Shown: one piece after another, positions 15,902 to 23,339 of the stretch
How positions within the stretch are numbered: position 1 is the stretch's first letter
Layout of the letters: each line of letters begins with the position of its first letter
NCBI GenBank assembly: GCA_030591685.1
Contig: JAUVAX010000017.1
Coordinates: 1-45,060 of the forward strand
Source: Pseudobdellovibrionaceae bacterium
GTDB taxonomy: Bacteria > Bdellovibrionota > Bdellovibrionia > Bdellovibrionales > UBA1609
DNA length: 45,060 nt
Direction: 5' to 3'
Notes under the pieces: model-generated
The model's database searches: none
What the model saw: only the letters and a program-made list of their open reading frames with translations
What the model was told of the DNA's origin: nothing
Made by a program: the position numbers and the translations under genes

Positions 15902-16579
15902 ATGCCTAAGGTTTTAGTTGTTGATGATGAGTTAGAGGTTCGAGACTTTTTGGTATCAACTCTCACTAGTGAAAGCTTTGAAGTTTTGGGCATTGAAAAT
16001 GGAAGTACTCTTCTTGATGTTTTAAAGAATTTTAATCCTGACATTATTTTAATGGACTACAAAATGCCTGGGCCTAATGGTGTTGAGCTTGTTAAGCAAG
16101 TCAGGGGTTATTCAGAGTATAAGGCGCTGCCGATTATAATGGTCACAGGTGTTGATGGCGAAGATGAGAAAGTTCAAGCCCTCGAGGTGGGTGCTGATGA
16201 TTATGTTGTAAAGCCATTTTTACCTAAAGTGTTAGGAGCTCGTATCAGAGCCGTATTGAGGAGATCAGTAGATTCTCAAGGAGCTCCGGATAAGCTTGAG
16301 GTGGCCGGCTTGGTGATTGATTTAAAGTCTCACAAGGTGTTTTTAGATAGCGCAGAAATTCATTTAACGCTAACTGAGTTTAAAATACTAACAGAGCTTT
16401 TGAAGCAAAAAAGCGAGGTGCTCTCAAGGGACAAGTTAAGACAATCCGCCTTGGGTAATTTAAATGTCACAGACCGAACCATTGATGTGCACATGGCCTC
16501 GTTGAGAAAAAAACTAGCTCACCTCGGAGACTCCATTGAAACGGTCAGGGGTGTTGGTTATAGGTTCGAAGCCAAGTAG
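15902..16579 (+). CDS. OmpR/PhoB family DNA-binding response regulator
   Basis: VVDD, LMDYKMPG, GADDYVVKPF, LTLTEF, DRTIDVH, IETVRGVGYRF; GGAGGAG RBS. Confidence 0.95.
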   Translation: MPKVLVVDDELEVRDFLVSTLTSESFEVLGIENGSTLLDVLKNFNPDIILMDYKMPGPNGVELVKQVRGYSEYKALPIIMVTGVDGEDEKVQALEVGADDYVVKPFLPKVLGARIRAVLRRSVDSQGAPDKLEVAGLVIDLKSHKVFLDSAEIHLTLTEFKILTELLKQKSEVLSRDKLRQSALGNLNVTDRTIDVHMASLRKKLAHLGDSIETVRGVGYRFEAK

Positions 16580-16744
16580 TGCAAAAATAACCACACCTAT
16601 AATAAATACTTATATTTGGTAGTTAAAGCATCACTGTGTTGGTTTTGAGGTGTCATATTGCACCGGCGTGAAAACAATTTCTTATGACTTAAAGCTCTTA
16701 AAATGTATTTAAAGTCACTTGGCTGTCAATATGGCTCCAAAAAG

Positions 16745-16761
16745 TTGGCCTTCTTTTTGCT
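16745..16761 (+). promoter_or_regulatory. sigma54 (-24/-12) promoter
   Basis: TTGGCCTTCTTTTTGCT, GG-N10-GC spacing with TTGCT; predicted start about 16772. Confidence 0.6.
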
Positions 16762-16770
16762 CTATACTAG

Positions 16771-16945
16771 GTTTAAGAGGCGCACAAAAAGCCGCCCTTT
16801 AAACTCAGGCTCCCCACCACAGTCGTGGTACTCTTAGAGCCTACAAGCCCCGCCCCACCGCCCCACCTGACCACTGGGGGAGCTAAAAAGCTCCCACCCA
16901 GCCCCGCCTCCCTTTTTTTTGAGTGACGGAGCCTTTTCTTTCTTT
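16771..16945 (+). ncRNA. Putative structured C-rich small RNA (family not recognised)
   Basis: GC-rich island without an ORF; hairpins 16771-16804, 16807-16842 and 16878-16895; CCCC[A/G]CC repeats; T-rich 3' end. Confidence 0.5.
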
Positions 16946-17175: not shown

Positions 17176-18522
17176 ATGAGTCGTGTGTTTCAGTATATCA
17201 TTGGCGTTGCTTTTTTTGCTCAAACACTTGTTGGAGGTTTAGACTCAGCAAAAGCTGACTATAAACTACTTTGGTTGCCAACAGATAAAGAGTGCCCAAG
17301 TCAAGAAACTCAAACCGAAAAATATATCAACGCACCTCTTTTTCATGACCTCTCAAGTGTAGCTGATATTTCTAGAATCCCAGGGCTTAATACACATGAT
17401 GAGCTGAGAACTTCAGATGTTTATAAGGATAAAGAGCTTCGGGTTTTTTATGAATTGATGGGACCTTTTGATCCTGAAAAAGAAACCATATTTTTTGTCC
17501 CAGGCGGTCCGGGGCAGGACCATACATTTATCCATACTCTCAAGGAAAAACTTTTTAAAAGATTTGATCCAGATTTTTTAAAAACATTCAATGTATTAGC
17601 AATGGATCACAGAGGTGTAGGCTGTTCGAAACCCAAGTTCCCGGGAAATGAGCCTTCCCAGAGCCTATATATACGATATGCGGCGTCTGATATGGACTTA
17701 ATCAGAAAAAAGTTACTGGGACACGAAGGTAAAATTCACGTCTGGGGTGGCTCATACGGTACAATGCTCTCTCAAACTTACGCTCTTCTGTACCCAAACT
17801 CCATAAAGAGCTTAATGTTGTGGGGAGCATTTAGTTCTTACAAGGATTTCTCACGTGCTAAGCAAAAGTATGAACCCTTTGTGGTGAGCAGCATCCCCAA
17901 GGTATATGAACTTTACCCCTCAATAAAAGATCAGCACCCAGAGCTAGCTCGATTATTTATCCAGTGGACAGCAGGACCCTTCTACGGTTACGAAGGACGA
18001 GCAAAAGTGATTCCTGTCATGATTGAAAAAATTAATTCATTGATTGCAGATAGTAAGATTGATGAAGCGAGGGAGCTTTTGTCCTCACCGCAAGGGGTTA
18101 TGCCCTGGATGATGAGGTCCGTAGCCTGTGGTGAAATTTTTGATTATCAAAGTCACTACGATGGTGAGTTTGAGGTTTTTGGAAATGTGTTTTCATACTG
18201 TGACGAGTACAAAGATATTAGAGAGCTTTTTAACTATTCAGACTTAATCAAACAAATCAACGTACCTACATTTCTTTTCAGCAATTTTTTTGATCACGTC
18301 ACACCATATGAGAGTATGATAAAAATGGCTCAACAAATTCCTGATAACTACTTTTACCTTGATAAGGATTCAGGGCATGGTGTAGATAAGCCCGAGTGTT
18401 TTACAGAACTCATCAGTGGTTTTTTTAAAGGTCTCAATAAAAATGCATTAGATGACATTGCCTATTCAAAAGCCTGTTTAGATCCACCAAAGACCCAACC
18501 AGACGCCGAAGATGATAAATAA
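17176..18522 (+). CDS. Secreted alpha/beta hydrolase, peptidase S33 (prolyl aminopeptidase)-like
   Basis: PGGPG, DHRGVGCS, GGSYG nucleophile elbow, FDHVTP (Asp), SGH (His); signal-like N-terminus. Confidence 0.85.
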   Translation: MSRVFQYIIGVAFFAQTLVGGLDSAKADYKLLWLPTDKECPSQETQTEKYINAPLFHDLSSVADISRIPGLNTHDELRTSDVYKDKELRVFYELMGPFDPEKETIFFVPGGPGQDHTFIHTLKEKLFKRFDPDFLKTFNVLAMDHRGVGCSKPKFPGNEPSQSLYIRYAASDMDLIRKKLLGHEGKIHVWGGSYGTMLSQTYALLYPNSIKSLMLWGAFSSYKDFSRAKQKYEPFVVSSIPKVYELYPSIKDQHPELARLFIQWTAGPFYGYEGRAKVIPVMIEKINSLIADSKIDEARELLSSPQGVMPWMMRSVACGEIFDYQSHYDGEFEVFGNVFSYCDEYKDIRELFNYSDLIKQINVPTFLFSNFFDHVTPYESMIKMAQQIPDNYFYLDKDSGHGVDKPECFTELISGFFKGLNKNALDDIAYSKACLDPPKTQPDAEDDK

Positions 18523-18716: not shown

Positions 18717-18790
18717 TGGAGGCGACTGCCGGAGTCGAACCGGCCTAAATGGATTTGCAGTCCACTGCCTAACCGCTTGGCTAAGTCGCC
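18717..18790 (-). tRNA. tRNA-Cys (GCA)
   Basis: 74-nt cloverleaf: acceptor GGCGACT/AGTCGCC, anticodon loop CTGCAAA, T-loop TTCGACT, U73 discriminator, encoded CCA. Confidence 0.97.
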
Positions 18791-21216: not shown

Positions 21217-21630
21217 TTAAATACTCATATTAGGGCAGAGGGCTTTTAAGGTCTCTAGGGCGTGCCTGACAGGCCGAGATGTTTTTTTATAACTTGTTTT
21301 TGGGGGGAAGCCGAATACAAATAAAATCCCATCTCTATGTGCGCTACATATGCGAGTACTCACTTTTACTGTCTTAATGCTCGCAAAGGCCTCTTTAAGT
21401 GAGAGGTAGTATTTGTACTTTTCTCGTGTAGATTTAGTTTTTAATTTAAAGATATATTCTTTTAATTTCTCGACTTCTTTTACTTTTAGAGCCACTGTTT
21501 TTTTATTTTTTATACGGGTTTTGTATTTTTGTAAGGTCGCCTCCACAGTTTTAAGGCTAGTTTCTTTTGCAAAACTAATTAGGCTAAAAGAAAGTATTAT
21601 TAATAAGGTTAGTTTTCGAACCCGTGACAT
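21217..21630 (-). CDS. Small basic secreted hypothetical protein
   Basis: Signal peptide ending ISFA; two Cys; overlaps the end of the upstream gene. Confidence 0.65.
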   Translation of the reverse strand: MSRVRKLTLLIILSFSLISFAKETSLKTVEATLQKYKTRIKNKKTVALKVKEVEKLKEYIFKLKTKSTREKYKYYLSLKEAFASIKTVKVSTRICSAHRDGILFVFGFPPKTSYKKTSRPVRHALETLKALCPNMSI

Positions 21631-23339
21631 CTAAGTCCTCCCTCTCCATTTTTAGCTTTGCCATAGCCCTCCATGTCAAAGCCACCACCTTCAATTAAAA
21701 GTAATTTATCATGTGCCATCATGGAGTAACTCTTCTCACTCGAAGTTACTATTGTCCCCCTCCAAAAACGACCGGCGGCTTTTGACGAGTATTCAAAATC
21801 TTTTTTTGAGACCTTTCCAGGAATGTACTTACCGTTTTTTAAAGCGCCCTCCGACTTTAAGAAACTACAGAGTTCATTTATCGTTTTCCCTGGTCCTCTG
21901 TGGTAAGCAAGCATGGTGAGTTTAGCTTTTAAACCTCGTTTTATTTCTTCAGGTAGGGCTTTTAAATTACACTTCTTATATCCGCCAGTCACCGTTCCCC
22001 TAAGGTGGTTATCCATATAGTATTCAAAAGTTTTATAACCCATAAATCCTAAAAACAAAGACCTTTCAGGGTTGTGTTTTGGGTCAATGAGCGCGCACTT
22101 GTTTTTAACGTTGGCATATTTCTTTAAATCCTCTTTATTTTTAATATGTTTATTGTACTTTTGCCCACATTTTTTTCCTTTAGTGAGCACTTGGGCTACA
22201 TTATTATAAATATCACCCAACTCGCCCGCAGGATTTTTATTTTTATCAAGGTATGTTGCCAGCTGAGCAATTCCAGCACTGGCTCCAAACTTACCCTCTC
22301 TGTTGTACCTGTTAATATGAAACTGTGATTCATAGTTTAAATTAACAAAAATGTTTTCAGCGACGACTTCTAAACATTGAGAGAGCTCGTTAAAAGTATT
22401 TACAATTCTATTATGATAATCATTGTTAACACATGGTGGTTGGTCGTTGGGGACTCCTTTGCAAGTACTATAATTGCCACCAGCAGGGTTAAACTGAGAT
22501 CGTTTAATACATTCAGATATCTGTTGAGGTGAAAGATTGCCAGGCCCTTTAGCATCATTGTTAAAGGGAGTGTTTTCATATTCTTTTATTACAAATTTGT
22601 TTTTGCACGTATTATCGGTCAGTACAGGGGTAAGGGGGGGAGGTTTTGGATCCTCTTCGCAGACGCCATCACAAATTTCTCCCTCAGTAACATCAACACC
22701 AACAATTACAGCATGAGGGGGCACTTTGCCAGTTGTGACGGGGGAAGGGTATTGGCTCTGATCCCCGCCACCGCCCGGAGGAGGATTGACTATTATAGGG
22801 TCTGGTGGAGGATTGACTATTATAGGGTCTGGAGGAGGATTGACTATTATAGGGTCTGGTGGAGGATTGACTATTATAGGGTCTGGATCAGAACCCCCTC
22901 CGCCTCCGGGACGCTTTTTTCTTGGTCTAAAAAGATTAAAGGTACTTCTTAAAAAAGATGAGGATATGTTGGATATTTGCATGCTTTTGTAGGGGTTTGT
23001 AAATGGCGTAAACCCACACGAATTTTGATAAGTTAAGCTCAGATTAACATTCACAAGTGTGGGGCTTGGAACATTATTTACCCGAGGGTTTATGGGGTAA
23101 GGGCAGTACGCCCCATTTGGTGTGTTCGTGCCCGGAAAGTTCATATAACGTGGCTGATTCATCTGAGGGTAAAAGTACGAGGCGGGCTGTCTATCGGTCT
23201 TGGCAACTTGTAAAACATACGATACGTCATTAGCGTTGTTGCTTGAATTTTCGCCGCTATGTTGAACACTTGCGTGATCACTACACGCCATAAAGCTAAA
23301 AGCTATTAAACTACATAAAAGTACCAGAGGCTTTCTCAT
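21609..23339 (-). CDS. Lipoprotein with a Pro-rich linker and C-terminal lytic transglycosylase (SLT)-like domain
   Basis: Lipobox FMAC; NYESQF (catalytic Glu-Ser), AGIAQL, LAYHRGPG match the lysozyme-fold SLT motifs. Confidence 0.7.
   Translation of the reverse strand: MRKPLVLLCSLIAFSFMACSDHASVQHSGENSSNNANDVSYVLQVAKTDRQPASYFYPQMNQPRYMNFPGTNTPNGAYCPYPINPRVNNVPSPTLVNVNLSLTYQNSCGFTPFTNPYKSMQISNISSSFLRSTFNLFRPRKKRPGGGGGSDPDPIIVNPPPDPIIVNPPPDPIIVNPPPDPIIVNPPPGGGGDQSQYPSPVTTGKVPPHAVIVGVDVTEGEICDGVCEEDPKPPPLTPVLTDNTCKNKFVIKEYENTPFNNDAKGPGNLSPQQISECIKRSQFNPAGGNYSTCKGVPNDQPPCVNNDYHNRIVNTFNELSQCLEVVAENIFVNLNYESQFHINRYNREGKFGASAGIAQLATYLDKNKNPAGELGDIYNNVAQVLTKGKKCGQKYNKHIKNKEDLKKYANVKNKCALIDPKHNPERSLFLGFMGYKTFEYYMDNHLRGTVTGGYKKCNLKALPEEIKRGLKAKLTMLAYHRGPGKTINELCSFLKSEGALKNGKYIPGKVSKKDFEYSSKAAGRFWRGTIVTSSEKSYSMMAHDKLLLIEGGGFDMEGYGKAKNGEGGLRCHGFEN
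22777..22884. repeat. 4 x 27-bp coding tandem repeat (DPIIVNPPP)
   Basis: Unit GG[A/T]GGAGGATTGACTATTATAGGGTCT; third base alternates A,T,A,T. Confidence 0.97.

Follow-up and report, generated by a model that had tools for sequence, protein, structure and literature searches.

A putative sigma-54-dependent small RNA family of the Bdellovibrionia with two unpaired C-rich boxes and an unlinked candidate activator

The window analysed here (the whole stretch of 45,060 nucleotides from a Pseudobdellovibrionaceae bacterium) was found, by sequence comparison, to carry at positions 16772-16920 a member of a new small RNA (sRNA) family of the Bdellovibrionia, nearly always present in a single copy. 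Both the gene and its candidate activator are well supported by the comparative data: conservation and covariation of the RNA, its promoter and enhancer motifs, and its co-occurrence with the activator were all observed in the genomes. The explanation that we favour, tentative when taken as a whole, is that of a stand-alone, trans-acting sRNA of about 120-150 nt. Its 17-bp enhancers would be bound by an unlinked pair of CHASE2 sensor kinase and NtrC-type activator, with the activator regulating its own operon and activating sigma-54 transcription of the RNA; this operon encodes, in many relatives, a one-cysteine peptide and a radical-SAM/SPASM maturase as well. The RNA would display two unpaired CCYRYC boxes at a fixed spacing between two stable hairpins, and the boxes would most likely bind a dimeric RNA-binding protein, as decoy or scaffold, that would be neither CsrA, nor Hfq, nor an RRM protein. 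The features on which this proposal is built are as follows (G000 is the source genome; C numbers are its contigs).

15902-16579, plus strand: orphan OmpR/PhoB-type response regulator with Receiver and Trans_reg_C domains and no AAA+ domain
16649-16665, plus strand: predicted distal enhancer (UAS), a 17-bp pseudo-palindrome with the consensus GGTGTCA-N3-TGACACC
16722-16738, minus strand: predicted proximal, inverted enhancer copy (12.7-12.9 bits), just 5' of the -24 element
16746-16761, plus strand: sigma-54 -24/-12 promoter, TGGC-N7-TTGCT, with a predicted +1 near 16772
16771-16804, plus strand: 5' hairpin, a lineage-variable leader outside the conserved core
16807-16842, plus strand: nested hairpin, P1 (16807-16812/16837-16842) around P2 (16816-16820/16825-16829), with an NNUC loop
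16849-16867, plus strand: single-stranded linker with CCYRYC boxes at 16849-16854 and 16862-16867 and an extra copy at 16854-16859 in the source genome
16874-16901, plus strand: 3' stem P3, including a 7-bp stem (16878-16895)
16902-16920, plus strand: C-rich tail and U8 run, the probable 3' end
G000:C47:125556-128909: CHASE2 sensor kinase and NtrC-type activator, a two-component pair unlinked to the RNA

The element lies in the gap between the OmpR-type response regulator gene (15902-16579) and an alpha/beta hydrolase gene (17176-18522). A preliminary description of this gap had proposed a new structured RNA under sigma-54 control, listing a palindrome (16649-16664), a -24/-12 promoter (16745-16761), a hairpin (16771-16804), a nested hairpin (16807-16842), a 7-bp stem (16878-16895), T runs (16913-16920 and 16934-16945) and the motif CCCCACC at 16812, 16853 and 16861; a string check located all of its strings at these positions, and promoter, enhancer, stems and C-rich boxes proved to be conserved class-wide. 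Three copies of CCCCACC within 120 nt occur at a single place in the 2.66-Mb source genome, as do five copies of CCCC[AG]CC, and this C-rich cluster exceeds chance. The folding of the single sequence is modest (z -2.06; reverse strand -2.40), and therefore the proof rests on homologues. Elsewhere in the window, a tRNA gene with a GCA anticodon (18720-18790, minus strand) is the sole Rfam match, and the gene at 21609-23339 (minus strand) encodes a protein of 576 aa in which the segment PPPDPIIVN is repeated and which has no Pfam match.

A BLASTN search with the element against 60 relatives returned no homologue. The same element was found by synteny behind orthologues of the OmpR-type regulator gene, mostly on the opposite strand, and iterated nhmmer searches located it at 76 of 110 loci, duplicates counted. 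A covariance model built from 47 sequences identified one copy in the source genome and matches in 60 of 109 family genomes. Across the class, matches were obtained in 103 of 151 genomes with a completeness of at least 90%, nearly always as single copies; six of these matches, with E above 1e-4, are weak, and one of the six was inspected. A phylum sample gave 25 matches in the same order, and two weak matches were obtained among about 120 genomes of other classes. Laxer searches added eight divergent members, checked by promoter and enhancer (G023, G048, G100, G001, G205, G213, G215 and G136), and confirmed G137. They covered 24 of the 26 class genomes that lack the activator (G061 and one more fall outside), and the weak model matches in 13 activator-negative genomes (G004, G031, G037, G043, G049, G059, G103, G166, G167, G006, G070, G120 and G054) were rejected, as they had no RNA fold or no promoter-enhancer pair. 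Within the large genus g56, there are RNA carriers as well as a clade that lost the RNA; strain HD100 itself is not claimed as a carrier. The homologue and covariation search suggested by the preliminary description has thus yielded a family with the same promoter and boxes and strong covariation.

The statement that no known RNA family is involved also held: the Rfam comparison gave nothing at gathering level in the gap, with chance matches by E-value only, and the same result on 12 homologous loci. Housekeeping 6S and SRP RNAs were discarded as identities, as both genes are located elsewhere in the source genome. In the Bdellovibrio literature surveyed (a survey in which subscription journals are barely represented and which stops short of the supplementary transcript lists of PMC3818213), we came across neither an account of this RNA nor any class-wide regulatory RNA of Bdellovibrionales, nor an RNA linked to the activator operon.

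According to the alignments, the conserved core consists of the nested hairpin and the 3' stem, with two unpaired CCYRYC boxes, separated by 6-7 nt, between them. In an alignment of 85 sequences, 89.5% of cells pair versus 75.1% in shuffles, with double-sided changes in 19 of 19 pairs and a covariation score of 0.422 (0.161 when shuffled, 0.066-0.114 when slid); a separate earlier count was similar, both counts being made on model-fitted alignments. The nested hairpin of the preliminary description is accordingly conserved and covarying, with P2 paired in 100% and P1 in 96.9% of cases and double-sided changes in nine of nine pairs, and the covariation of P2 is also seen when the sequences are simply aligned with MAFFT (AU28/GC16/CG2). 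Its 7-bp stem falls within P3, where the upper helix is 91.8% paired with double changes in five of five pairs, and the lower helix just 70.7%. The hairpin at +1 is not a core element and belongs to a variable leader that measures less than 20 nt in 71 of 100 members, folds at -4 kcal/mol or below in 29 of 100 and extends to 90-150 nt in a few. Structured 5' extensions of 90-150 nt occur in L104, L108, L111, L116, L124, L100, L115, L182, L181 and L309, and several of these members share a conserved motif of their own between promoter and core. Two further variants were noted (L211:1501-1583 in G141 and L313:1094-1218 in G213), one with boxes, stem and GC tail and with neither a nested hairpin nor a nearby promoter, the other with an insertion ahead of the boxes.

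The linker with the CCYRYC boxes is likely to be the functional site. Of 111 members, 104 contain at least one box and 64 contain two or more. The unpaired fraction exceeds 70% in 122 of 175 boxes, and the spacer between the two boxes is 6-7 nt in 48 of 55 pairs. The repeated C motif described earlier needs to be narrowed: the strings are there, free boxes exist only at 16849-16867, the copies at 16812 and 16893 lie inside stems and that at 16902 lies in the 3' tail. Instead of a many-copy repeat, the family has two boxes. The T-rich ends, although present here, are not general, since among the 3' ends of 111 members a U run of four or more is found in 45, a GCGC/CGCG tail in 48 and neither in 29; the tail and U8 run are therefore no uniform intrinsic terminator across the family. 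The expected transcript of 150-175 nt is now predicted at 149 nt, up to the first U run. A proposed G-quadruplex role was abandoned, the pattern being restricted to one of 111 members, the source genome's copy. No conserved reading frame was detected (ATG in 46 of 111 members, with lengths even across frames).

Transcription of the RNA from the predicted sigma-54 promoter is very probable, judging from the following. A strict sigma-54 pattern recurs within 170 nt at 100 of 109 loci (in 88 cases at a distance of 25-60 nt), compared with 0-5 in 20 shuffles, which bears out the -24/-12 assignment, and the source genome encodes rpoN and 12 activators. The palindrome noted earlier is present and was corrected to a 17-bp site (16649-16665), whose second, inverted copy at 16722-16738 had been missed. 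With the final matrix, from which the RNA locus was excluded, the site at 16649 is the best of 90 intergenic matches (19.7 bits). The motif reaches at least 10 bits in 92 of 97 upstream regions versus 1-6 shuffled ones, the matrix having been trained on the same regions. Two copies recur, an inverted one 20-29 nt and another about 95-115 nt before the -24 element; the former position, 20-29 nt ahead of the -24 TGG, is the commonest class (67 of 158 sites). In 7 loci, the orientation of the enhancer-promoter-RNA cassette towards the matrixin gene is reversed, as opposed to 93 loci with the divergent arrangement. In five of five closed genomes examined, all from one clade, proximal enhancer, promoter and RNA were cleanly lost together; in these loci (L328-L332; G175, G209, G177, G163 and G193) the cassette is gone between the matrixin and dehydrogenase genes and the activator is kept. 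This inversion and deletion as a unit is the best indirect support for a gene of defined polarity. Further sigma-54 consensus sites followed by GC-rich, hairpin-like sequence occur at G000:C10:18095, C41:4022 and C80:12585, and possibly mark additional sRNAs or leaders.

The commonest neighbour of the RNA is a divergent sigma-54 matrixin lipoprotein gene (100 of 112 loci). In the source genome this gene moved to C73, and the enhancers remained beside the RNA. The C73 locus (L202:5631-6664; G000:C73:19630-20663) comprises the sigma-54 matrixin lipoprotein gene and then a gene of 75-85 aa of no known family, and an upstream motif, ATTTAAGTT..CCTAGACT, is common to its homologues. The OmpR-type regulator, whose named relatives are almost all Bdellovibrionales records, is encoded within 1.5 kb at 19 of 60 model-found loci, and the RNA-positive genome G033 (99% complete) returned merely paralogue-level matches to it, with no orthologue found. 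On gene content, we regard this regulator as a frequent neighbour that is neither the activator nor required. An activator or kinase-like protein adjoins the RNA in just 3 of 112 loci.

The activator is instead likely to be the unlinked NtrC-type protein C47:127425, as suggested by phylogenetic profiles and binding sites. Of 12 activators, it was the one whose distribution followed that of the RNA when 12 genomes were first compared, with some copies absent from the sample. Over the 151 class genomes, an orthologue is present in all 103 RNA-positive ones, and once the verified additions are included, the RNA occurs in 110 of 125 genomes with a C47-type orthologue and in 0 of 26 without (the activator of G100 was counted as an orthologue by synteny). 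Since 15 of the 125 activator-positive genomes gave no RNA, the RNA is dispensable. Joint absence extends over at least nine genera; these counts come from genomes that are kin, and some of the 26 without the orthologue are reduced. The 17-bp enhancer also heads the C47 operon in the source genome (C47:125417, 14.6 bits), and it does so in 19 of 23 other genomes versus 16 of 383 random upstream regions, 7 of the 19 sites lying directly before the kinase gene and 12 before a longer operon. G044, where the region is short of the operon head, and G056, where the match lies inside the peptide gene, were counted as misses among the 23.

The kinase of the C47 operon has a CHASE2 domain. In many relatives (L375-L390), the sigma-54 operon consists of a radical-SAM/SPASM maturase of the PapB/nif11 type (scoring below all curated cut-offs), a peptide of 33-45 aa with one cysteine near its end, the CHASE2 kinase and the activator. 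The source genome's copy (G000:C47:125417-128909) retains kinase and activator and has lost the maturase and peptide genes; therefore, the peptide is unnecessary for keeping the RNA. Several genomes, the source genome among them, share this state, with kinase and activator present and maturase and peptide absent at the operon site. In B. bacteriovorus HD100, the genes Bd3357-Bd3360, which resemble the activator operon in gene order and length, a match not based on sequence comparison, rise 10- to 58-fold from 0.7-4.4 RPKM in attack phase to 26-88 in growth phase, as given in the accessible part of PMC3627812. Such a growth-phase reading would explain why the attack-phase survey, as far as that part of it reports, missed the RNA. 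Two high-scoring enhancer copies and a sigma-54 site also precede a gene for a 127-aa secreted-looking protein (G000:C78:5962-6075), a second candidate target of the C47 activator.

That the sRNA is real and answers to another activator, or is modulated by the OmpR-type protein, is improbable in our view. The nearest contender is the close paralogue C64:38604, whose helix-turn-helix is nearly identical to that of the C47 activator; however, 10 RNA-positive genomes lack it, and 16 genomes with neither the RNA nor the C47-type orthologue possess it. This paralogue and a second CHASE2 kinase are encoded inside a lipopolysaccharide gene cluster (L297:5605-8911, G000:C64). The frequent adjacency of the OmpR gene, and a profiling that took in 12 activators, first in 12 genomes and with part of their copies, leave this alternative some room, against which stand the enhancer at the head of the C47 operon, the missing AAA+ domain of OmpR-type proteins and the RNA-positive G033. 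More improbable still is that there is no independent RNA at all and that the conserved sequence is a cis element, either a terminator, 3' UTR or antisense of the regulator gene or the enhancer region of the matrixin gene. The usual arrangement, convergent with the regulator gene and divergent from the matrixin gene, would be compatible with it, as would the non-uniform 3' end; yet an inverted cassette retains a polarity of its own, the cassette is also found where the regulator gene is missing and, in the source genome, it held its enhancers when the matrixin gene left; its stems covary, and there is no conserved reading frame.

With regard to the mode of action, the sponge of CsrB/RsmZ or CrcZ type offered by the preliminary description now seems scarcely credible. 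CsrA is encoded in the source genome and CrcZ is sigma-54 driven, which would speak for it; against it, of the 278 GGA triplets in 111 members a single one is unpaired, the sole GGA of the source copy (16879) sits in a stem, Hfq was not found in six of six genomes and Rfam gave no match. The GGA placement rules out a CsrA sponge, and the failure to find Hfq a Crc/Hfq sponge; an RRM-protein sponge was set aside, no RRM protein having been found in the source genome or in the RNA-positive G039. Pairing of a box with the 3' strand of P2, as a molecular switch, was likewise rejected, because members with GCGG or GGGG in that strand retain, by eye, the A in the box.

A more serious alternative, rather unlikely as a complete account, retains the same gene and activator and has the RNA pair through its C-rich boxes with GGUGGG/GGUAGG in mRNAs without Hfq. 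Taken simply as a mode, and granted a real RNA, mRNA pairing is quite possible; protein binding, granted the RNA and the rest, comes just short of probable. The boxes lie unpaired between hairpins, their variation is almost wholly G-U wobble-compatible with a fixed GGUGGG (fitting RNA pairing equally), and C-rich pairing without Hfq has a precedent in RsaE/RoxS and RNAIII (PMC2790875, in part). In addition, GGTAGG is enriched 6.3-fold and GGTGGG 2.8-fold before start codons. Against pairing, true Shine-Dalgarno words are enriched far more (27-fold), and the start regions of three neighbouring genes gave duplex energies equal to those of shuffled controls (92, 61 and 44 cases). Gene starts of the activator operon carry pairing sites in 1 of 10 and 2 of 29 cases, which is no signal, and in a scan limited to the source genome 321 of 2326 start regions versus 354 of 2339 coding windows fell below -20 kcal/mol; its best match, the activator gene C81:1553, lacks orthologues among the 12 genomes of the comparison. 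The anti-RBS idea of the preliminary description therefore keeps its conserved, unpaired boxes and gained no pairing signal in the target tests.

The boxes themselves have an invariant CC..C around a degenerate middle, and conservation does not extend to a longer seed; in box 1 of 85 sequences, position 5 is C49/U36 and position 4 A69/G8. For mRNA pairing, a seed of 6 nt that includes two wobbles would be weak. In 36 of 55 members the two boxes have the same base at position 3, versus 26.6 expected (kinship ignored), which fits protein or pairing. A dimeric protein is slightly favoured, since the repeat at fixed spacing, the invariant ends around a degenerate middle and the sequence kept in P2 would fit it somewhat better. 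Two boxes are few for a titrating sponge, and this counts against the protein mode. The 12-13 nt box period resembles, as an analogy, Rho primary-site spacing.

Compared with known systems, the family would represent a new RNA of a known regulatory kind, the two-component-controlled sigma-54 sRNA, with an unlinked activator that appears also to control a modified-peptide operon as its unusual feature. CrcZ/CrcY likewise combine a sigma-54 promoter with an NtrC-type activator, a likeness that rests here on motifs and co-occurrence; for these RNAs, Hfq in the host and A-rich CA motifs are expected, whereas the conserved motif here is CCYRYC and Hfq was not found in the genomes searched. CsrB/RsmZ differ in that all but one of the GGA motifs here lie outside loops and single strands, even if the required CsrA is present in the host. 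The Qrr sRNAs under LuxO in Vibrio share the signalling circuit from kinase through NtrC-type activator to an unlinked sigma-54 sRNA (parts of PMC12101431), whereas the present family has no sequence or Rfam match, a single copy, three helical elements with two CCYRYC boxes and, as sensor, a CHASE2 kinase tied to a peptide operon; the Hfq-dependent mRNA pairing of Qrr finds no counterpart, with neither Hfq nor a target found. RNAIII and RsaE/RoxS resemble it in their unpaired C-rich motifs and Hfq-independent host (PMC2790875 and PMC12101431, both in part), and differ in having UCCC instead of CCYRYC; here there are sigma-54 and an AAA+ activator, and a source genome without the peptide genes.

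Closer in lineage, Pxr of Myxococcus, beside nla19, is a multi-hairpin sigma-54 sRNA of about 110 nt from a deltaproteobacteria-like lineage, and the Desulfovibrio ncRNAs DVU0653 and DVU0679 are similar in the same respects (sections of PMC5568312 and PMC4641369). In those sections they adjoin the activator gene, Pxr lying downstream of a sigma-54 activator gene, whereas the RNA described here adjoins matrixin and OmpR genes and its activator lies elsewhere; no Rfam match was obtained up to E 5-10, Pxr included. Within the same order, intergenic sRNAs are known from HD100 (APsRNA1-7 and merRNA, from the attack-phase survey in the accessible part of PMC3627812), and none of the eight sequences in its Fig. 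S1 has, by eye, the nested hairpin or the boxes. The 261-nt hit-locus RNA has other neighbours in the portion of PMC3818213 available to us, and is set apart by position, not sequence.

The staphylococcal agr system, in which an operon for peptide, kinase and regulator controls both its own expression and an effector RNA (PMC2790875 and PMC12101431, in part), provides the most far-reaching parallel; here, operon layout and a shared enhancer alone are known, and peptide sensing is putative. It is conceivable, and on balance unlikely in this full form, that these Gram-negative predators have assembled an agr/RNAIII-like circuit from different components, with the RNA as its effector. In it, the CHASE2 kinase would sense the one-cysteine peptide modified by the radical-SAM enzyme, the activator would drive the RNA and its own operon while the cells grow inside prey, and the RNA would capture a hitherto undescribed CCYRYC-binding protein without Hfq. 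Predators of this type switch sharply between attack and growth programmes, and Hfq was not found in the genomes searched. Most Bdellovibrio-type predators carry the RNA, which is probably activated through a sensor kinase whose circuit is linked to the operon for a modified peptide, and the family gives them a candidate signal-controlled RNA regulator. In a tractable genus, this single-copy RNA can be studied together with its predicted activator, the binding motif and lineages that have deleted it naturally.
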